Notes: generated by a model not told the origin, from the letters alone. DNA of 64,000 nucleotides from Spirochaetaceae bacterium (GCA_007693945.1 RECP01000069.1:1718-65717); one strand, 5' to 3'; shown: positions 22,578 to 38,433, numbered from the stretch's first letter. A program made the numbers and translations.

Positions 22578-22625
22578 TGCCGCCATATGGTGTATAGAAT
22601 GAGTGTACAACATTATATATGGGGG
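22578..22625. promoter_or_regulatory. Tandem NrdR-box-like operators
   Basis: ACATTATATATGGGG (22610) and a weaker TGCCGCCATATGGTG (22578) lie 32 bp apart, immediately 5' of nrdJ. Both resemble the consensus acaCwAtATaTwGtg. Confidence 0.6.
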
Positions 22626-22632
22626 TGTTTGC

Positions 22633-25600
22633 GTGAAGATCGCACGTCGGTTTACAGATAACAGCTCAGGACCGTACAAGGGCATAACCTGGGATACGCG
22701 GGTCTCCGAAATCAGGAACCCTGACGGCTCGGTCATATTTCGCAAGGAAGACGTGGTGGTGCCGTCGAGTTGGTCACAGATTGCAACCGATATCCTGGCA
22801 CAGAAGTACTTTCGCAAATCCGGAGTTCCCTCGAGCAACGGACACGGCGACCAGGAATACGACGCGCGACAGGTATTCCACCGATTGGCCCACACCTGGA
22901 CTATCTGGGGTGAACGCGCCGGCTATTTTGACACCGGAGAAGACGCTCGGGCCTTCTACGAAGAAATGTGCTATATGCTGGCGCACCAGATGGGAGCGCC
23001 CAACTCTCCCCAGTGGTTCAACACCGGTCTGCACGCCGCCTACGGCATCGAAGGGCCGGCGCAGGGACACTTCTACGTTGAACCGCAAAGCGGAGAGGTC
23101 AAACCGTCGCAGAGTGCCTACGAACGGCCTCAGCCGCACGCCTGTTTCATAATGGACGTCAAGGACGACCTGGTCAATGAAGGCGGCATCATGGATCTGG
23201 TAACACGTGAGGCGCGGCTGTTCAAGTACGGTTCCGGCACCGGCTCCAATTTTTCGCGCCTTCGCGGCGAGACCGAACCGCTGTCCGGTGGGGGAGTTTC
23301 CTCGGGACTGCTTTCGTTCCTTAAGATAGCGGATCGCTCGGCGGCGGCAATCAAAAGCGGCGGTACCACGCGTCGGGCCGCCAAGATGGTGACCCTTGAT
23401 GCAGATCACCCTGATATCGAACGCTACGTGGAGTGGAAAGCTGCCGAGGAGTACAAGGTCGCCAGTATGGTTGCCGGAAGTCGCATTATCGCACGGCGAG
23501 TGCGCGCGATGCTCGAAGCCATCAAACAGTACGGCGCGGACCTGCAGGCGGCCTGCGATCCCGATCGTAATCCGCAGTTACGTCAGGCGGTGATGCAGGC
23601 AATGGACTGCGAGATTCCAACCTCGCTCATTCACCAGGTTCTGCAGCGTGCCCAGGAAGGTGATCTCGAGCCGTTGCTGATGGAGTTCACTACCGAATGG
23701 GACGCCGAGGCGTACAACACGGTCAGTGGGCAGTCGTCCAACAATTCGGTGCGCGTCGCCAATCAGTTCATGCAGGCGGTTATCGAAGACACGGACTGGA
23801 ACCTCGTTGCGCGGACCGACGGGTCGGTGCGCAAGACGATCAAGGCGCGTGAGCTTTGGCATAGCATGGCGCGCACATCGTGGCAGTGTGCTGACCCGGG
23901 CCTGCAGTTTCACAGCACAATCAACGAATGGCACACCTGCCCTGAAGACGGCGAGATCCGCGCTTCCAACCCGTGCAGCGAGTACATGTTTCTCGATGAT
24001 ACGGCGTGTAACCTGGCGTCGCTCAACCTGCTGACCTTCTATGACACCGACAAGGACATCTTCGATATCGAGTCCTACCTGCACGCAATTCGTCTCTGGA
24101 CGATCGTGCTCGAGATCAGTGTGGTCATGGCGCAGTTCCCGAGTCGAGAGGTAGCGCGCAAGAGCTACGATTACCGTACCCTCGGCCTGGGATACGCCAA
24201 CCTGGGCACCTTGCTGATGGTGATGGGGCTGCCGTACGACGGTGACGAGGGACGTGCGACGGCGGCTGCGCTTTCCGCCATTCTGACCGGGGAAGCGTAC
24301 GCCACTTCGGCGCAGATGGCCGCCGACGCGGGGCCGTTTGCGCGTTATGAGGCCAACAAGCAGCACATGCAGCGCGTGATCCGCAATCACCGGCGCGCGG
24401 CTTACAACGCTCCGCAGGAAGAGTATGAAGAGCTGACTATCCTCCCGCGTGGTATTGATGAGAAGCTCTGTCCCGCCGATCTGGTAGAGACCGCTCGCCG
24501 TTCGTGGGACCGTGCGCTGGAATTGGGTCTGCAATACGGCTATCGCAACGCGCAGGCCACTGCGATTGCCCCAACCGGCACAATCGGTCTGGTCATGGAT
24601 TGCGATACCACCGGCGTTGAGCCCGACTTCGCGCTGGTCAAGTTCAAGAAGCTGGCCGGGGGAGGCTATTTCAAAATCATCAACCGATCGATTCCGCCGG
24701 CACTCAGGAAACTGGGTTACTCCAAGAAGCAGGTGCGCGAGATCATCGAATACTGTCTCGGCCACGCTGCGCTCGATGATGCACCGGGCGTGAGCCGCGA
24801 GAAACTGGCCGCCAGGGGTTTCAGTCAGAAGACTCTCGACGAAGTCGATGCTTCGCTCAAGAACGCCTTTAACCTGGCCGGCGTCATCAATCACTACGTA
24901 CTCGGACAGCACGTTATGGAACAGGAGCTCGGTGTGCCCGAGGCAACCTATAGCCTGCCCGGATTTGACCTGCTGAAACACCTTGGCTTCACGCAGCAGG
25001 AGATCGACGCGGCGGAGATCCACGCCTGCGGAGCGATGACCGTTGAGGGCTGTCCGCATCTCAAGCCGGAACACCTGCCTGTCTTTGATACCGCCAGTCC
25101 TTCGGGGCGGCTGGGAACCCGTTCGATCAGCTGGCGGGGACACGTAGAGATGATGGCCGCCGTGCAGCCGTTTGTTTCGGGCGCTATCTCCAAGACAATC
25201 AACATGCCCAACGCGGTCACAATTAGCGAGGTCGAGGAGGCTCACATGCTCTCGTGGCGCCTGATGCTCAAGTCGATCGCACTCTACCGTGACGGCTCCA
25301 AACTGAGTCAGCCGTTGAGCAGTCTGGGAGCCGGCGCCGACAGAATTGCCGAGAAACTGCTGACGCTCAAGTCCGGGATACCCGCGGCAACCGATCTGTC
25401 TGCCGGCGACTCACCGCGAGTGCAGACCCGGGCACAGCGACGCGCGTTGCCCGGGCGTCGCGTCGGCTACACGCAGAAGGCCAAGATCGGCAATCACAGC
25501 CTGTTTATCCGGACCGGACAGTACGTGGACGGCAGTTTGGGCGAAATCTTTCTTGATATGCACAAGGAAGGCGCAGCATTCCGATCGCTGGTCAACAGTT

Positions 25601-26196
25601 TTGCGATTGCGGTCTCACTGGGGCTGCAGTACGGCGTGCCGCTGGAAGAGTACGTCGACGCCTTCACCTTCACCCGTTTCGAGCCCAACGGTATCGTCAG
25701 CGGCCACGATAACATAAAGATGGCGACTTCGGTGCTGGATCTGGTGTTCCGTGATCTCGCGCTGTCGTACCTCAACCGCACCGACCTGGTTCAGGTGAAG
25801 CCCGAAGATCTGATTGCCACATCGACGCTGGCGAACGGCTCCGCCGCGGATTCCCGGCCGGCTGACTCCGGTCCGCCGCCGGAGACAGCCGCACCCGCAT
25901 CGGAACCGGAGGGCGCTCAGTTGTCCGAACAACCCGATCGCGCTCATGCCGAAGGGCGCACCGCCGTCCCCCAGCCCGCCTCGGCGCCGATGTCCCGAGC
26001 CCGCGGCGGTACCGGAACGACTGCTCGATCAAAGCGCGGCACGTCGGCCGTACAGGATGCCGGCCGCGAGCGCAAACTGGCGCGGTTGAAGGGCTACGAG
26101 GGTGACCCCTGTTCTACCTGCGGACACTTCACCCTGCTGCGGAACGGAACGTGCATGAAATGCGATACGTGCGGATCCACTACCGGCTGTTCGTAG
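22633..26196 (+). CDS. nrdJ: Class II (adenosylcobalamin-dependent) ribonucleotide reductase with TSCPD domain and C-terminal Zn ribbon
   Basis: [52 protein letters not shown] and terminal C..C...C..C motifs. GTG start. Confidence 0.95.
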
Positions 26197-28256: not shown

Positions 28257-29088
28257 TCAGCCTACCCTCACCTGCGTAATCATCTGCGCCAGTTCGTCTC
28301 CGTCGGCACCGTGCAGACGGCGGTAAGCACCGCCAAAGGTGGCAGCCAGTTCGCGCATAGCACGACTGCCGCGCCGCGATCCGGTGGTATCGATGAACAG
28401 AGGATGAACCTGCAGGCAACTGCTCATCCGGGCCACGGCCTCGATAGTCTGGTGCTCTTCCGGCGGCGAAACGTTTCCCTCCCCGTCGGAAAACACCATC
28501 ACTTCCACCGGTTCTCCGGGTTCACGCATGCGCTGCGTCTCGACCAGCCGCAGTGCGAGGTAGAGCCCGGATGCAAGCGGGGTTGCCCCGCCGAGCGACA
28601 GGTTATCCAGTGCCCGGCGCGCGCGGTCAATCGCCGATGTCGGCTCGAGTGTAACCTCAGCTTCCGTGTCCGCAAAGGTGATCAGCGCCACGCGGTCTTT
28701 GCGCCGTTCCGCGGACGCCAGCAGCGACAGCAGCGCGATGCGCGCGACGTGCAGCTGATTGTGATCGGCCATCGAATCCGAGGTATCGAGCACCAGGATT
28801 ACCGTGTGCCGGTCACGGCGCCGGCGCACCTTGCGCCTGAGATGTGAGCGGTCGACCAGCGATCTGGTGGCTCCGAGCACACGATCCAGCGCCGCCGCCC
28901 GCAGTGTTGCGTCAACCGCCAGGTCCCGCACGGCGCCTTCATGCTTCGGCGGTCGAGCAAAAACGTAACGGCCGCGGCTGGCGGTCGTGCGGCGCGCCCT
29001 TCCGCGACGGCGGCGCAGCCGCAGGATGATGCCGGCCACGGCTGCCTCTACCGCGCGCCGGACTTCCGGCGTGTCGTCATCGGAGAGC
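28257..29088 (-). CDS. chlD: VWA-domain C-terminal half of chelatase subunit ChlD/BchD-like (-1 frame of the upstream ORF)
   Basis: LAVDATLRAAA, MIDAS LDTSDSM, DRVALITF, GGATPLA and SDG motifs. The frame is open back to the A10 run at 29089-29098. Confidence 0.8.
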
Positions 29089-29098
29089 TTTTTTTTTT
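29046..29098 (-). other. Putative programmed -1 frameshift signal (A10G slippery run plus 3' hairpin)
   Basis: The minus strand reads CTC AAA AAA AAA AGC, containing A AAA AAG. It is followed by CGCCGG-AAGT-CCGGCG, which may be enclosed by CTCTCCG/CGGTAGAG. Confidence 0.75.
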
Positions 29099-30262
29099 GA
29101 GAATCGGCAGCAGAATGCTGCCCGCGGCCGCCCCGCCGGGAATCTGCATCGATTCCAGCGCCTCCTCGTCGACTTCATCGGCATCTGCCGCCGTACGGCG
29201 GTCGGCGCTTCCCGCTGCCGGCGCGTCCTTGCGCAGCCCGTCATCCGACCGCAAACGCTCGAGCAGGGCGTCGATTTCGGCGTCGGCTTCCTCGGGAGAA
29301 CGCAGCAGTCGGCCGTCAAAGCGGTGCGGTAGCACAAAACGCGCAGCCTCGAACAGCAGTTCACGGTCGATGGTTTCGCGTTCCAGCAGTGCGGCAAAGG
29401 CCCGGGCGGCTTTCACCAGAGCCAGGTCGGCGCGGTGCCCGGCAACGCCGGCTTCGGAGGCAATCCTGACCGCGTCGTTCAGTAGCTGCGTGGATGCATC
29501 AAGTCGGCTGATCCGTTTGCGCGCCGCAACCACCAGTTCGCGCAGGCGCAAATCCTCCTGCTGCCACTGCCGCAGGAAACGACCCGGGTCGGCTTCAAAA
29601 CTGGTGCGGCGCCGGATGACCTCAACGCGCTCATCCGTTTCGGTCAGTCCGCGCACCGTAACGCACAGCCCAAAGCGGTCCAGGAACTGCGGGCGCAGTT
29701 CACCCTCCTCAGGGTTCATGGTCCCCACCAGGATAAAGCGTGCCGGATGGCGCAGCGAGATTCCTTCGCGTTCGACCACGTTCTCGCCGGAGGTCGCAGC
29801 GTCGAGAAGCAGATCCACCAGATGGTCCTCCAGCAGATTAACCTCGTCGACGTACAGAATGCCGCGGTTGGCCTCAGCCAGCAGTCCGGGTTCAAACCGG
29901 CGCACGCCGGCGGTCAAGGCGTGTTCGATATCGAGCGTGCCGACCAGGCGGTCTTCAGTGGCGCCCAGAGGCAACTCTATCAGTGGAACCGTGACGGTGA
30001 CGGCCTCGGGACGGTTCTCCGTGCGGCAATGATCGCACAGCCCGGCCGGCCGATCGGGGTCGCAGTGGTAGGGACAGCCCGTTACCGCTCGCAGCGGCGG
30101 CAGGAGTTCCCGCAAGGCGCGCACAACAGTGGATTTGGCGGTGCCCTTTTCACCCCTGATCAGCACGCCGCCGAGTGAAGGATCAACCGCCGCGGCCAGA
30201 AGAGCGGTCTTCATGGCAGGCTGGCCGACAACGGCGCTGAACGGGTATCCTGAACTACTCAC
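29048..30262 (-). CDS. chlI: Mg/Co-chelatase AAA+ subunit (ChlI/BchI-like; N-terminal half of chlD)
   Basis: YPFSAVVGQ, GGVLIRGEKGTAKST, LPLGATEDR.VG, GILYVDEVNLL and NPEEGELRPQFLDRFG motifs. Confidence 0.92.
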   Translation of the reverse strand: MSSSGYPFSAVVGQPAMKTALLAAAVDPSLGGVLIRGEKGTAKSTVVRALRELLPPLRAVTGCPYHCDPDRPAGLCDHCRTENRPEAVTVTVPLIELPLGATEDRLVGTLDIEHALTAGVRRFEPGLLAEANRGILYVDEVNLLEDHLVDLLLDAATSGENVVEREGISLRHPARFILVGTMNPEEGELRPQFLDRFGLCVTVRGLTETDERVEVIRRRTSFEADPGRFLRQWQQEDLRLRELVVAARKRISRLDASTQLLNDAVRIASEAGVAGHRADLALVKAARAFAALLERETIDRELLFEAARFVLPHRFDGRLLRSPEEADAEIDALLERLRSDDGLRKDAPAAGSADRRTAADADEVDEEALESMQIPGGAAAGSILLPILKKKSSPMTTRRKSGAR

Positions 30263-30290
30263 GAGCTTTCACCGGCTTCAGACCGCGACG

Positions 30291-30692
30291 CTACTGTCTC
30301 ACCACCAGCAGGTTCTGCCTGCGGTTCATGCGGATATGCGTCACCTCGCGATTGCGCTCTGTAACCGTCAGATTGGTGAGAAAATAGACGTCGGGGCTGA
30401 TAGGTCTGACGGCAAAAAAGCTGTTGCCGGCGCTGTTTTGCAGCACGAAGAAGCCGTCCTCCATCCGCCAGGCGTCAAAATCGAGTCCTTCCGCGATTAC
30501 CGTGCCGTCAACGTCGATTTGCAGGTTCCCCTCCGCGCTGACCTCGGTTCGACCGGCGGTGTAGTCGCTCATCGTGTAGTTTGCCAGCTGGTCGATCTGG
30601 TAAACCGTCCAGGCACCGACCATATCTACCTCTTGTGCGGCACTCCATCCTGCCAGCATCAACAATACTGCTCCCATTACCAGCTTTCGCAT
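30291..30692 (-). CDS. Hypothetical secreted protein
   Basis: Signal peptide MRKLVMGAVLLMLAGWSAA, GGAGG RBS and a beta-rich mature part. Confidence 0.75.
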   Translation of the reverse strand: MRKLVMGAVLLMLAGWSAAQEVDMVGAWTVYQIDQLANYTMSDYTAGRTEVSAEGNLQIDVDGTVIAEGLDFDAWRMEDGFFVLQNSAGNSFFAVRPISPDVYFLTNLTVTERNREVTHIRMNRRQNLLVVRQ

Positions 30693-30772
30693 GCTACCTC
30701 CGCGCTCCATACGCACACCGGGAGTGTGGCCGTACCTCGTTTTGTCTAAAGAGTACTACAAAACGGAACGAA

Positions 30773-33144: not shown

Positions 33145-35043
33145 TCAATGCTGGAAGTCCTCGCGCGTCGGGATGTCGTGTTTGGTAATCGAACAGAGGA
33201 TCTGGTCGGTCAGAGGCGTGATCGACGAGATCCGGTTGGCCTGTTTCTCGACCGTCTTCTCGAAGAGGTTGCGCACAAAGCGTCCATTGCCGAAGCCCTT
33301 GTCGCGTTTCCTGTAGAACGCGGTCATGATCGCCAACAGTTCGCGCCGCGCCGGTGCGGTCAGGTTGAAGGAAGCGTTGGAAGCAAAAATGTCAAAGATC
33401 TTCAGCAGTTCATCCGGTGCATAGTGGTCGAAGTAGAAGTAGCGGCTAAAGCGGCTCTGCAGGCCGGGATTGGAGTGGATGAAATCGTTCATCTCATCGG
33501 GGTACCCCGCGACTATCACCACCAGCCGATCGCGGTAGTCCTCCATGCGTTTCAGCAGCGTGTCGATTGCTTCCTGGCCAAAATCCTTACCGGCGCCGCG
33601 CGGTGACAGCGTGTAGGCCTCGTCAATGAACAATACTCCGTCGAGCGCTTCGTTGACCACCTCATCGACCTGGATAGCGGTCTGGCCGACGTAGCCGGCC
33701 ACCAGGCCGGCCCGATCGGTCTCCACCATGTGCCCCTTGCGCAGCAGACCAAGGCACTTGTACACCCGCCCCAGGTAGCGCGCGATGGTAGTCTTGCCGG
33801 TTCCCGGCGGGCCGTAGAACACGGCGTGTTTGGAGAACGGCGTCACCGGAAGCCCACGCCGTTCCCGTTCGCTGTGCACCTTGATCACATTTACAAAGGT
33901 GGCGATCTGCTGCTTGACCTTGCTCATGCCGATCAGATCATTGATGATCTCCATCACCTCCTCGAGCGTCTCTTCCTGCTCGTGCTCGGCGATGCGCACG
34001 GTCTGGCGCGCCTGCTTCTTCTCTTCGGCGTCCGAAACCTGCTCCTGATCACCGTAGATCAGCTTTCTGATCTTCTGCAGCTTCTGCGGGCCGTTCTTTG
34101 TCACCGTACCGTCGGCTTTGATGACGCACTGCGCGTAGGTGAAGAACGCGGCCGCCATCTTGTCGAAGTGTGAGCTGTCCTGACGGCGATCGTAGAGATG
34201 GAGGTACTGTAACGACTTGAGCGAAGACGCGCTCACACTGCGCATCTTCTGGATTTCATTGTAGAAAATGTGCCAGTAGGTCAGGATTTCCCGACGGTGA
34301 TGCAGCGGAAGCGAGTCATAACGGAACACGTCGAGCACCAGTTCACGATCCGGAATCAACCTCTGCCGCAGGTACATGAACACCATTGCAATGAAGAGCC
34401 TGGCCTCTTCCGGCGGGTCGTCCTTACCGATGCAGGCAAAGGTCACATAGAAGAGGTCATCGATCATCTGCTGCAGGAAGGCCGGCTCGTTGTTGAACTG
34501 CTTGTACTGGTTGACGGCGCGGATGATCTTGCGCGCTTCGTTGTGCAGAAAATTGAGATTCGCCAGGCGTTCCTCATCCGAACGCGCCCGATTGGCCTCT
34601 TCGGCGGCAATCGAGGCATCCTCGACCACCAGATCGTCGCCGACGCGCGCCTTGAGATGGTCAAGAAACGTACGCGTCAACGTGCTGCGCTTGGTCGAAG
34701 TGAGGACGCTGGTACCTGCACTGTGCTGCAGCGAGATCCGGACCGAACTGTTGCTCCTTTTGGCCTCCACCATCAGCAGATCCTCAAAGCCGATTGTTTC
34801 GGCCGCAGTGGCCGATTTACCGTTGAGCAGGAACATGATGCGCTTGTTGGTGATGCACAGGATTCCGGGGGCGCCGGAGCCCGAGGCGGCCACCTTGTTG
34901 GCGCGATAGAAGCCTTCGAGCACGTCTTCGACCTCTTCATCCTCGTCGAGAACACAATTGAACGTATTGAGGATGTTCTTCTTGAACGAAACGTGCAGCC
35001 AGTTCGCAATGCGGCCCAGCTGAGATTCAAGCTCTTGTCGCAC
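33145..35043 (-). CDS. CbbX/SpoVK-family AAA ATPase with a long N-terminal extension
   Basis: [54 protein letters not shown] and FGNGRFVRN motifs. Confidence 0.88.
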
Positions 35044-35092
35044 TGCCGGTTCCCCTCCAACTCGGCCTGTTCAGCTGATCCCGATTATAGTC

Positions 35093-36769
35093 TCATCGGC
35101 CGGCTTTTGCATCACCGGCGATGTGCATCAGCTGCAAAAGATCGCGGCACGCTCGATGTGCCGACATGTAGGCCGGCGTATTGGGCATGCCGATGATCAC
35201 TCCCAGCCCACTGTGCAGCGTCTCGTGGGTATAGCGCGTGAGCAGCTTCAGGTAGGCTTGCGCGTTGGTGGTTCCGTTGCCGTCGCGCAGCAGCAGCGAC
35301 TCCACATCCAGCGCCCGCGCCAGCCGGCCGATCTGGCGTGTCACCAGCGGGTAGAGAACGCGGATCAACTCCAGAAACCGGGCGTGATACTCCCCGTCGT
35401 GATCGATCAAGTGCGCGATCTGCGATCTGCGATCGCGGACCAGTCGACCGTCGCTTTCGCGCTTGCGCGGTACAACGGCGCTGAACCGCTGTCGCAGGTT
35501 ATCCGAGCGCTGGAGGTTGATCATGGCGGCGTAGAACAGCAGCACGCCGGCTGCCGTGCCGGCCTCATACGGCAATCCGGCGCTGTCGACGCCAGCGATC
35601 TCCTGCAGCAGGGTTCGTACGCGCACCTCCAGCCGTCGGCTGCGGTCCTGGCCCTCGGCGGCGCGTGTCTCAGTGCGCTGTTCCAGCCATTCGAGGTAGT
35701 GCTGACTCTCGGTCAGCGCGCGCAGTGCAGCCTGTCGGGGTCGCGACCGGGCCGCAGCCGCAACCCAACCGTAAAGGGCATAACGCAGTCGCCTGCTTGC
35801 CGCCGCGTCTTCCCCGATAGAGTCACGTTCCAGCCGTAGCCCCACCAGACGCTCGGCGACTTCGGCTACCGATCGGTCGGAAGCCCGCAGCGACATCTCG
35901 CGCAGCATTGCGCGGCGGATACGCATCCGGCTGATAGAGGACGCCCCCACCTCCGGCGGCAGCGGGGGCAGCAGCACGTCTTGAAGCATGTCGAGCAAAC
36001 CGTGAATGCGATATGCCAGCGTGGTTTCGGGTGAATAGCGATGCTGCAACAGGTCCAGCGCGGTATCGTTGGGGACGTAGGCGACGTCCCTGATGCGTTG
36101 TGCTTGCGGTGATTCAAGCTGGAGCTCCCGGGGCACATAGCAGTTGTACTGGGCAATCACCTGAGCCGCCGGCAACCCTTCGTAGGCCTCGGCACTGAAT
36201 CGATTGTGCCACAGAAGAACGCGCAGGTCGGGCGCTATTTCGAGCGCCGCTTTCAGGTATCCGCCTGCCGAAACCTGCGACGTGGGCTCGGGCTGAACCA
36301 CCACCAGTAGCGTCCCGACGCACGGTAGAAAGGCCAGGTTTTCTGCATGACTGATGCCGGCCGGCATGTCGAAAACCACCAGCTCGTAGCGTTGATCCAG
36401 TTCTGCAGCGTAGCGTTCGAAGAGCGCCGTTCTGAGGAGTTGACTCTCCCCGCGCCCCAGCTTCTGACGCGGGAAGAGCAAATCAAACCTGGGAAACAGC
36501 GACAGGGAGTAACTGCTCAGCGATTCAAGCGAAGCGTCGATCTGCTCGGGGATGCTGTCCAGGGTGCTCCGGGCAAGATCCAGGATCACGGCGATATTGG
36601 ACAACGGGTCGAGATCCACCAGGGCAACACGGATGCCGTTGCGGGCGCATAACAGGGCAAGATTGAGGGCTGTGGTCGACTTTCCCACGCCGCCCTTGCC
36701 CGATCCGACCGCGACACTTTTGCGTACCAGCGAGGCGTGCGCCGCCGGTCGCCGTTCAACACTCTGCAT
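35093..36769 (-). CDS. MinD/ParA/FlhG-family P-loop ATPase with a large C-terminal extension
   Basis: Deviant Walker A SGKGGVGKST, LVDLD, FDMPAG and PEPTS motifs. Confidence 0.8.
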   Translation of the reverse strand: MQSVERRPAAHASLVRKSVAVGSGKGGVGKSTTALNLALLCARNGIRVALVDLDPLSNIAVILDLARSTLDSIPEQIDASLESLSSYSLSLFPRFDLLFPRQKLGRGESQLLRTALFERYAAELDQRYELVVFDMPAGISHAENLAFLPCVGTLLVVVQPEPTSQVSAGGYLKAALEIAPDLRVLLWHNRFSAEAYEGLPAAQVIAQYNCYVPRELQLESPQAQRIRDVAYVPNDTALDLLQHRYSPETTLAYRIHGLLDMLQDVLLPPLPPEVGASSISRMRIRRAMLREMSLRASDRSVAEVAERLVGLRLERDSIGEDAAASRRLRYALYGWVAAAARSRPRQAALRALTESQHYLEWLEQRTETRAAEGQDRSRRLEVRVRTLLQEIAGVDSAGLPYEAGTAAGVLLFYAAMINLQRSDNLRQRFSAVVPRKRESDGRLVRDRRSQIAHLIDHDGEYHARFLELIRVLYPLVTRQIGRLARALDVESLLLRDGNGTTNAQAYLKLLTRYTHETLHSGLGVIIGMPNTPAYMSAHRACRDLLQLMHIAGDAKAGR

Positions 36770-36873
36770 CGTGCTCAGTATAGCCAAATGCGTGCTCCTC
36801 GCAATACCATTTCGCCAATCACGCCCGACGGCGATATATTGTAGCCAGGAAGGAGTACAGGAGGATACGTGAT

Positions 36874-38433
36874 ATGGCACGCAACGGATGGCGCACCGCA
36901 TTCTGGGTGTTGCTGAGTGCGGTATTACTACTGGCTATTGGTTTTTCTCTTGGAAGGTCCTACAATCAGGCAGCCGGCGCCGTGCCGGTTACGGGTTTAA
37001 CGCGCGCTGAAGCCGGCGGACACCTTACCGTTTCCGGATCGCAGACACTCGAACGCACTGCAGACCAACCGGTACAGCCGGCTCCGCTTGCTGACCCCCG
37101 GCCGACAAACGCGCCGCTCTCGTTTCGCACGGTCGCTGAGAATGTGTTGCCGGTTGTTGTCGAAGTCAACACCGTTGAGGTGATTCGGCAGAGCGTCCCG
37201 CGCTTCCCTTCGCCGTGGGAGTTTTTCTTTGGTCCACGTGAGCAGCCGGAACCGCAGGAGCGCGAGTTCCGCAGGCCGGGACTGGGTTCGGGCGTGCTTG
37301 TACGCCGTGACGGCACCACTGTCTACGTGCTTACCAACGCACACGTGGTTGGCGATGCCCGCGAGATCAGTCTCAGGTTGTTTGACGGACGCGAGTTTGA
37401 GGCCGAGATCGTGGGCAAGGATTCGCGCACTGACCTGGCACTGATCCGTTTTGAGTCGCGCGAAGAAGTTCCGCTTGCCCGGCTGGGGGACTCCGATTCG
37501 CTGCATGTCGGAGACTGGGTCGTTGCGGTCGGTAATCCGCTGGGCTTCGAATCTACGGTGACCGCGGGAATCGTCAGCGCCCTGGGCCGCAGACCTCAGC
37601 CTGGTTCACCGATCGCCGGGTTTACCGACTACATCCAGACCGACGCCTCAATCAATCCGGGGAACTCCGGCGGGGCGCTGGCCGACATCCATGGAGAGAT
37701 CGTCGGCATCAACACCTGGATTGCATCTCGCGGCGGAGGCAGCGTCGGGCTGGGCTTCGCAATACCGATCAACAACGCCAAACGGGCAATTGACGACTTC
37801 ATCGAGCAGGGGCGCATTATCTACGGCTGGCTCGGGGTCTCAATCCAGGACGTCAGCCCGCAGATTACCCCGGGGCTGGCGCAGGATCTGGGGATTGAAG
37901 GCCAATCCGGGGCGCTGGTCATCAACGTCCACCGTGATTCACCCGCCGCACGCGCCGGCATCAGACCGGGGGACTTTGTGACGCAGATTGACGACACGTC
38001 GATTACCGACACAGCCCAGATGACGCGGGTGATCGGCAACCTCGCACCGGGCCGCCGTGCCGTGTTTACCCTGAAACGCGCCGGCCGGGAGATGACCATC
38101 GGCGTGACCCTCGACAGCCGGGGTACCGAGGACGAAGTGGCCGCTCCAGCGGGCATGTGGCCGGGAATGGCGATTGTACCGCTTAGCGAGACAATGCGCG
38201 AGGCGCGCGACATTGAAGAGGCTATCGACGGCGTGCTGGTGGCCTCGGTACTACAGGATGGACCGGCCGCAATTGCCGGCTTACGCAACGGTGACGTAAT
38301 CACCCAGGTCAACGGTACTGCCGTGCGCGCGGCGCGCGACTTCTACCGCGCGCTGGCCGGCGCGTCGGGCGAAATCCTGTTCCGCGTAAACCGTCAGGGT
38401 GTACGGATTGTCGTAGGGATGGACGCGTTGTAA
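36874..38433 (+). CDS. htrA: HtrA/DegP (Do) serine protease with two PDZ domains
   Basis: GLGSGV, LTNAHVV, DLAL, GNPLG, IQTDASINPGNSGGAL and two PDZ repeats; N-terminal membrane anchor. Confidence 0.93.
   Translation: MARNGWRTAFWVLLSAVLLLAIGFSLGRSYNQAAGAVPVTGLTRAEAGGHLTVSGSQTLERTADQPVQPAPLADPRPTNAPLSFRTVAENVLPVVVEVNTVEVIRQSVPRFPSPWEFFFGPREQPEPQEREFRRPGLGSGVLVRRDGTTVYVLTNAHVVGDAREISLRLFDGREFEAEIVGKDSRTDLALIRFESREEVPLARLGDSDSLHVGDWVVAVGNPLGFESTVTAGIVSALGRRPQPGSPIAGFTDYIQTDASINPGNSGGALADIHGEIVGINTWIASRGGGSVGLGFAIPINNAKRAIDDFIEQGRIIYGWLGVSIQDVSPQITPGLAQDLGIEGQSGALVINVHRDSPAARAGIRPGDFVTQIDDTSITDTAQMTRVIGNLAPGRRAVFTLKRAGREMTIGVTLDSRGTEDEVAAPAGMWPGMAIVPLSETMREARDIEEAIDGVLVASVLQDGPAAIAGLRNGDVITQVNGTAVRAARDFYRALAGASGEILFRVNRQGVRIVVGMDAL

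Follow-up and report, generated by a model that had tools for sequence, protein, structure and literature searches.

A run of ten adenines in a chlD-like gene of a Spirochaetaceae bacterium as the probable origin of a short and a long product

The minus strand of the window, the whole 64-kb stretch of DNA that was analysed, carries at one locus a ChlI-like AAA+ ATPase reading frame and, in the -1 frame relative to it, a ChlD-type VWA domain, with a run of ten adenines (A10) at the point where one frame gives way to the other. The locus raises the question of whether these are two adjacent genes, one gene that has been broken in the genome or in its assembly, or one gene from which two proteins are made. 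The third answer, a single chlD-type gene with a programmed slippage site that gives a short and a long product, is held with high confidence. The same had been proposed in an earlier note on this DNA, which took the locus for a single gene whose short ChlI-like and long ChlD-like products differ by a -1 shift of frame at A10; the conservation of the run, the junction found in an in-frame relative and the lack of a conserved VWA start make this very probable.

Frames, features and domains of the locus

The locus contains the following features, with coordinates counted along the window.

28257..30262, minus strand: the whole chlD-like gene, putatively recoded, in two frames; 2006 nt, with predicted products of 404 aa and 668 aa
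29048..30262, minus strand: ORF1, a ChlI/BchI-like AAA+ ATPase of 404 aa with a GTG start
29089..29098, minus strand: the A10 run, candidate slippery sequence and site of the frame change, appearing as T10 on the plus strand and containing an in-phase A_AAA_AAA heptamer
28257..29098, minus strand: the -1 frame part, a linker and a ChlD-type VWA (integrin-I-like) domain with the MIDAS motif DTSDS
29056..29071, minus strand: the hairpin CGCCGG-AAGT-CCGGCG, present, not conserved and probably without function
29037..29039, minus strand: a GTG with GAGG 5 nt upstream, a possible separate start of the VWA part in this genome only

Around the run, the 0 frame reads ...CTG CCG ATT CTC AAA AAA AAA AGC TCT CCG ... 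CGG TAG, and ORF1 stops 13 sense codons past the three AAA (Lys) codons. The -1 frame reads QKKKLSDDDTPEVRRAVEAAVAGIIL...; it is already open from about 25 codons upstream of A10 and stays open down to 28257, into the VWA domain. When checked on the minus strand, the run at 29089-29098, the nearby ORF1 stop and the open -1 frame were all as first described, and the product lengths of 404 and about 668 aa given at that time were correct. In particular, the gene span of 2006 nt equals 3x668+2, so that reading one base twice, or adding one A to the RNA, would bring the total to 669 codons, for a protein of 668 aa. The two other frames of this gene reach stop codons 5 and 14 codons past the end of the run. 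Further, A10 is the sole A/T run of at least 9 nt in the window (0.11 expected from shuffles), and the assembly (3.73 Mb, 61% G+C) has three runs of length 10 including this one, compared with 0.46 expected in an iid sequence.

ORF1 has a P-loop (GEKGTAKST, the commonest form among the loci scanned, with 54 motif matches), a Walker B motif (ILYVDEVNLL) and a CxxxC...CxxC insert, and it matches the Pfam families Mg_chelatase, AAA_lid_2 and AAA_5. The -1 frame part matches Pfam VWA_2 (1.6e-16). Comparison with the Rhodobacter Mg-chelatase shows the same division, where ORF1 aligns to BchI (1g8p; residues 6-315, E 1.8e-95) and the VWA part aligns to the integrin-I domain of BchD (2x31_A; E 3.8e-14). 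Unlike the locus studied here, a single gene in a genome that yielded no large subunit, BchI and BchD are encoded by separate genes and work with BchH; moreover, the four-Cys insert of ORF1 is missing in BchI.

Against the NCBIfam model TIGR02442, ORF1 covers positions 1-343 (472.6 bits) and the -1 frame part covers positions 403-640 (162.9 bits); the in-frame 676-aa protein of a relative from the same genus (L008) covers positions 1-640 of 641 in one stretch (621.5 bits). The frame break falls in the poorly conserved linker that joins the two modules of a ChlD-type protein. The architecture agrees with TIGR02442 ('putative cobaltochelatase'), and both the two halves and the L008 protein score below its cut-off of 779.45 bits. 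Similarly, the scores of ORF1 (404.8 and 251.8 bits) and of L008 (389.3 and 340.6 bits) against TIGR02030 BchI-ChlI and TIGR02031 BchD-ChlD lie below the equivalog cut-offs of these models (466.95 and 499.55 bits, respectively), which sets the locus apart from BchI and BchD.

Conservation of the run and of the frame offset

A search with ORF1 across 41 related genomes gave 15 with a clear orthologue, the genome of the window among them, at identities of 52-100%. All 15 loci have an adenine run at the same place: its length is ten in 13 of them, nine in one (L017) and eleven in one (L008). To reach the VWA domain, a -1 shift at the run is required in 14 of the 15 loci, where 13 have the plain -1 offset and the fourteenth (L016) has a -1 offset at its A10 together with a second frame break about 70 nt upstream, the only such second break among the loci. 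The conservation of the run and of the frame offset, which the earlier note had proposed as a check, therefore extends to 14 of 15 orthologous loci. The remaining locus is L008, whose eleven adenines place both domains in a single frame of 676 aa that reads ...PILKKKKLSDNDD...; its junction (...ILKKKKLSD...) is exactly the one predicted for the slipped product.

The scan was then widened to species-representative genomes, which provided 76 loci, a sample biased by the peptide patterns that were used to collect it. Within this sample, 21 loci combine a -1 offset with an A8-A10 run in the overlap, 33 are in-frame fusions, 7 have only the ATPase within the locus, 10 have the VWA match upstream instead, and 5 show other arrangements. 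Thermodesulfobacteriota, Spirochaetes and Chloroflexota are among the groups represented in the 21 frameshifted loci. Overall, on this comparative evidence, the run and its frame offset have evidently been kept under selection, and the long protein is evidently the ancestral architecture.

The same comparisons bear on whether the gene is merely broken. A decaying pseudogene of a once-fused chlD could be imagined, as the gene might seem useless in a genome that appears to have neither a large chelatase subunit nor a B12 pathway; however, both frames are intact and carry their catalytic and MIDAS motifs throughout the 52-100% identity range, and the break always occurs at the same run, with L016 alone having another. 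Decay is thus scarcely credible. An unprogrammed break of a different kind, from a homopolymer miscount in assembly or from A10/A11 length (phase) variation of the DNA within the population, would agree with the in-frame A11 of one same-genus genome, and the A10 count does come from assemblies, with the evidence from the DNA runs being at the level of contigs. In the possible source sample (run X1), one contig spans the region with 0 differences, and it is the sole contig that bridges A10. Contigs from a second sample (X2) break off at the run or close to it (28923-29106 and 29087-30300), which could reflect length heterogeneity or merely low depth, and the contigs of X3 and X4 leave the run unbridged; no insertion or deletion rows were reported at the region in the four DNA runs compared. 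The DNA-run contigs neither contradict nor independently confirm A10. Against an unprogrammed break, in addition to the empty insertion and deletion rows, exactly A10, at an identical -1 offset, recurs in 13 related genomes that were assembled independently, the 21 further loci from other phyla have A8-A10 and a -1 offset, and both halves of the gene are intact and under coding constraint. An unprogrammed break is therefore improbable.

A further alternative is that the locus comprises two separate genes, a ChlI-like ATPase and a VWA protein that is started at GTG 29039, with GAGG as its SD, or by reinitiation. It had been claimed that the VWA part lacks a convincing start or SD. For the window itself this was too strong, as the GTG at 29037-29039 and the GAGG 5 nt before it are plausible and sit just past the ORF1 stop; for the relatives it holds, as the start is not conserved. 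In particular, the codon aligned to the GTG is GTT in L005, L006 and L018, ATA in L007 and ATT in L008, and none of L005, L006 and L008 has an ATG, GTG or TTG in the first 45 VWA-frame codons past the run. Moreover, the peptide between the run and the GTG is conserved. Across five aligned same-genus sequences, the variable columns past the run number 9/25, 2/25 and 16/24 at VWA-frame codon positions 1, 2 and 3, and 4/9, 1/9 and 6/9 within the overlap with the ORF1 tail; this third-position bias indicates protein-coding constraint on the VWA frame that starts at the run. The tail of ORF1 varies in both sequence and length (9 to 13 codons in the genus). Independent initiation of the VWA part was rejected on the grounds of its non-conserved start and of coding constraint that begins at the run, and because homologues are also single fused proteins (33 of the 76 loci, and L008), the two-gene arrangement is very improbable.

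A single gene with a conserved frame change also agrees with earlier work, as frameshifted chlD genes have already been reported, which the earlier note had stated correctly. In the available portions of these papers, Antonov et al. (2013) describe 23 genes with -1 frameshifts that form a 'magnesium chelatase' cluster, from which three cassettes were tested (PMC3711429), Kuznetsov et al. (2022) report frameshifted chlD genes in all major phyla (PMC9227772), and Atkins et al. (2016) discuss the frameshifted chlD cluster (PMC5009743). The locus in the window shows the characteristics of this class: an N-terminal ChlI-like AAA+ ORF with intact ATPase motifs, a ChlD-type VWA domain in the -1 frame without a conserved start of its own, and a conserved poly-A site (A_AAA_AAR or longer) in the ORF overlap. 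The resemblance lies in the order of the parts, with the ChlI-like AAA+ ORF followed by the -1-frame VWA ORF, in the poly-A of the linker, and in the prospect of two subunits from one gene. Antonov reportedly also dealt with the recoding of this class in MBE in 2020. The present locus differs in belonging to a new lineage, represented by a soda-lake metagenome assembly, and in a run length that is fixed at A10 across relatives. It is a member of the published class in a new lineage, and it reveals no new mechanism.

Polymerase and ribosome as possible routes to the long product

In the proposed mechanism, expression without slippage would end 13 codons past A10 and yield the 404-aa ChlI-like AAA+ ATPase. 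A fraction of the expression events would gain one base at the run, either when RNA polymerase adds one A on the T10 template to create an A11 mRNA, or when the ribosome slips by -1 on A_AAA_AAA. By either route the VWA frame would be entered, and the resulting ChlD-like protein of 668 aa would contain the junction ...ILKKKKLSDDD...; the KKKK-junction protein is identical in both cases, and the routes are inseparable from DNA alone or by proteomics. By analogy with BchI and BchD, the two products may then co-assemble into a mixed AAA+ complex.

Several characteristics of the run lead us to lean towards slippage by the polymerase as the main route, a leaning that stands slightly above an even chance. 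It is favoured because a length of 9-10 is conserved despite differing codon phases: the run is read as CTC AAA AAA AAA AGC in the genus of the window and as GAA AAA AAA AAG ACC in another genus, with ten adenines in both. It is favoured, too, because in-frame relatives retain the run (A11 in L008, and an A9 or A10 linker run in 4 of the 33 in-frame fusions of the wider scan) and because all 35 frameshifted junctions have at least 8 A's, with a bare heptamer in none of them. In the available part of Antonov et al., frameshifting of the cluster cassettes in E. coli was 63%, 40% and 10% with 11, 9 and 7 A's, respectively (PMC3711429), and this rise in efficiency with run length adds to the case for the polymerase.

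The comparison with Thermus thermophilus dnaX points in the same direction. In that gene, as described in the accessible text of Atkins et al., tau and gamma arise by transcriptional slippage on a run of 9 A/T (PMC5009743). The combination that characterises Thermus dnaX, an A/T run of at least 9 nt with early stops in the alternative frames, was found here as well: both non-VWA frames stop 4-17 codons from the run in 13 of the 15 orthologous loci (the exceptions are L014 and L017), which supports the polymerase route. The two systems, so far as the available description goes, share a homopolymer of about the length of the RNA-DNA hybrid at a domain boundary, the early stops in the other frames, and two products destined for one AAA+ complex. 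They differ in direction, as the DNA frame of the Thermus gene encodes the long product and slippage yields the short one, whereas here the short product is the one encoded in the DNA, apart from L008 with its A11. Slippage at the RNA level is, for the present locus, a candidate mechanism proposed from DNA.

The competing explanation leaves the frame change entirely to the ribosome: programmed -1 frameshifting on A_AAA_AAA, with the hairpin past the run as its stimulator. All 14 frameshifted orthologous loci do contain the heptamer in phase, and the literature, in the portions available, describes the gene cluster as programmed ribosomal frameshifting (PMC3711429, PMC9227772, PMC5009743). Any run of at least 8 A's contains an in-phase A_AAA_AAN heptamer, so that the variation in codon phase is compatible with ribosomal frameshifting. 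However, a purely ribosomal route is harder to reconcile with junctions that always have at least 8 A's, with the increase in cassette efficiency at longer runs, and with the retention of the run where the genes are in frame. Aragorn found no tRNA-Lys among the 32 tRNAs that it identified in the incomplete assembly, a result that carries no information on how prone AAA/AAG is to shifting.

The hairpin does little to help the ribosomal explanation. As had been noted from the sequence, a 6-bp GC hairpin does exist in this genome; as a stimulator, however, it is unconserved, and its region folds no better than shuffled sequence. In particular, it begins 17 nt past the run, which is far for a stimulator, and it is not part of the minimum-energy fold. 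The folding energy of the 79 nt from the run onward is -26.5 kcal/mol, compared with -24.6 +/- 2.8 kcal/mol for shuffles (z = -0.68), where 47 of 200 shuffles were as good. Among the relatives of the same genus, synonymous changes in the TPEVRR codons destroy the hairpin in L005 and L006 and weaken it in L018, and L007 and L008 differ throughout; it is thus broken in the four frameshifted same-genus relatives that were aligned (L005, L006, L007 and L018). The RNAalifold consensus of five same-genus sequences does not contain the hairpin, with a covariation term of +1.72 (positive, and therefore penalising) and one compensatory pair. RNAalifold and shuffle folding together found no conserved stimulator downstream of the run, another reason for the lean towards the polymerase. 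The published class may differ from the present locus in this respect, as the available passages of the papers speak of stimulatory structures in general. Overall, purely ribosomal frameshifting is considered unlikely, and polymerase slippage remains the favoured main route.

Genome context and the role of the pair

The earlier note also labelled the two products as small and medium chelatase subunits, and it called for a genome search for cobN and chlH. That search was carried out and returned no CobN/ChlH (PF02514) match in the genome of the window, which is 86% complete, and in the same genome the B12 markers CbiC, CobS, CbiB, CobA/BtuR and CbiX had 0 matches each. Because the genome is only 86% complete, the absence of cobN and the B12 genes is unproven. 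A CobN match was obtained in one of the 41 related genomes (G017), where a single contig holds cobN together with its own ChlI-like gene and an in-frame ChlD-like gene, and the frameshifted chlD lies elsewhere; this arrangement suggests that the frameshifted gene is not the partner of CobN. A search for a further ChlI-like gene in the genome of the window found none; apart from itself, the best match to ORF1 has an E of 2.9e-9 and 30% identity.

The neighbourhood of the gene did not suggest a tetrapyrrole role, as no tetrapyrrole-related neighbours were found around it. A 141-aa ORF upstream and an M48 peptidase downstream are kept in the same-genus loci only, and the flanks of ten other loci contain unrelated genes, for example those for an indigoidine synthase A-like protein, an LD-carboxypeptidase, a peroxiredoxin, TrkA and a chromate transporter. 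No conserved neighbourhood partner emerged from the same-genus loci and these ten.

The label of small and medium chelatase subunits is accordingly an architectural analogy and not a supported function here. Since no large subunit and no corrin pathway were found, the complex probably does not serve as a chelatase motor for cobalt or magnesium in this organism; a MoxR/VWA-like remodelling role would be a guess. There is a counterpart in the published class: in the available part of Kuznetsov et al., the 'stage 1' genomes of Spirochaeta thermophila and Brevefilum fermentans are without chlH/cobN and without the B12 and chlorophyll pathways, and the function of frameshifted chlD there is called unclear (PMC9227772). 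The present genome resembles them in that the large subunit and the B12 pathway are apparently missing here too.

A broader proposal, offered tentatively and at somewhat less than an even chance, is that the ChlI/ChlD-type pair of this bacterial order is an orphan AAA+/VWA machine that has no tetrapyrrole role and acts on a target other than a CobN/ChlH-type subunit. The ratio of its two forms would be set by polymerase slippage on exactly ten A's, which would work in both directions, with A10 genes gaining the long form and A11 or in-frame genes gaining the short form.

For annotation, the two adjacent 'genes' should be entered as one recoded gene with two products, and not as a chlI gene beside a start-less VWA gene or a pseudogene. 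With A10 in 13 of 15 related genomes, the locus adds a clean and well-conserved lineage to the published class of frameshifted chlD genes. Moreover, it provides a further set of genomes that have the pair and in which no large chelatase subunit or B12 pathway was found, which sharpens the question of what role an orphan ChlI/ChlD complex may play.

The short product and its orthologues

Two features of the ChlI-like short product (404 aa) lie within ORF1 (29048-30262) of the chlD-like gene, the first of them adjoining the A10 tract where the reading frame changes (the run; 29089-29098). Positions are those of the window unless a contig is named.

29099-29150, minus strand: peptide motif M-Q/E-I/V-P-G-x-x-A-A-G-S-I/L/V-L, immediately 5′ of the run
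30020-30080, minus strand: four-cysteine insert CPYHCDPDRPAGLCDHC, ORF1 residues about 63-79, after the P-loop

The motif, which makes up the C-terminal portion of the short product, is found at the same place in L005-L018, L026 and L028; its carriers are the window's relatives, together with one Spirochaetaceae locus and one Thermodesulfobacteriota locus. A regular expression for it had no match in the other 19 frameshifted loci and no true match in 33 in-frame loci, where the single match, in L067, fell in a spurious frame. One orthologue, L016 (contig C57 of the related genome G035), contains a second frame break (+1) at about 2520-2545, approximately 70 nt 5′ of the A10 tract. Because this break adds to the one at the run, two frame changes are needed in L016, and the second may stem from misassembly or mark a copy in decay.

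Further, the four-cysteine insert distinguishes ORF1 from BchI, the Rhodobacter Mg-chelatase subunit (1g8p), which has no cysteines at that position. The pattern CxxxC...CxxC occurs there in 61 of the 91 loci scanned, and the insert is possibly a metal site that characterises the non-photosynthetic branch.

Other poly-A runs in the source genome

Long A runs also occur elsewhere in G000, apparently the source organism's own assembly.

Contig C93:277-285 (locus L100:277-285), minus strand, outside the window: A9 run within a transposase-like frame
Contig C9:29854-29980 (locus L101): A10 run, followed 110 nt later by an A9 run

At the first site, the transposase-like frame reads ...RVLQSKKKRPGSGDD... 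and stops 16 codons on; a different frame stays open to the contig end, and joining the two requires a +1 frame change, or the loss of one A. The locus looks like an IS element that joins orfA and orfB via poly-A slippage. At the second site, the A10 run immediately follows a stop codon, and between the two runs lies a long inverted repeat (...CAGTGGTGCCGAAATTGTTGT...ACAACAATTTCGGCACCAC...), an arrangement that looks like a two-way terminator.

Neighbouring genes and probable corrinoid dependence

30291-30716, minus strand: 141-aa ORF with a signal-peptide-like start
33145-36901, minus strand: 632-aa protein (bacterial PH domain, AAA module and AAA_lid_6) adjoining a 602-aa ParA/MinD-like ATPase
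22603-26196, plus strand: class II, B12-dependent ribonucleotide reductase with a TSCPD domain
G017 contig C86:3546-10252: adjoining ChlI-like frame (412 aa open), in-frame ChlD-like gene (649 aa open) and cobN (1195 aa open)

The 141-aa ORF has no Pfam match, and 28 nt separate its end from the start of the chlD-like gene, which lies downstream on the same strand. Four same-genus loci retain the ORF at that place (63-85% identity); none was found in loci of other genera.

Among the 41 relatives, CobN, the large chelatase subunit, was found only in G017, which additionally has a frameshifted chlD on contig C76. The C86 gene set may represent either a genuine second system or contamination of the bin.

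The class II ribonucleotide reductase gene lies 2 kb away from the chlD-like gene. None of five markers of B12 synthesis or adenosylation (CbiC, CobS, CbiB, CobA/BtuR and CbiX) was found in the source genome (86% complete), and the organism must probably import the corrinoids it needs.
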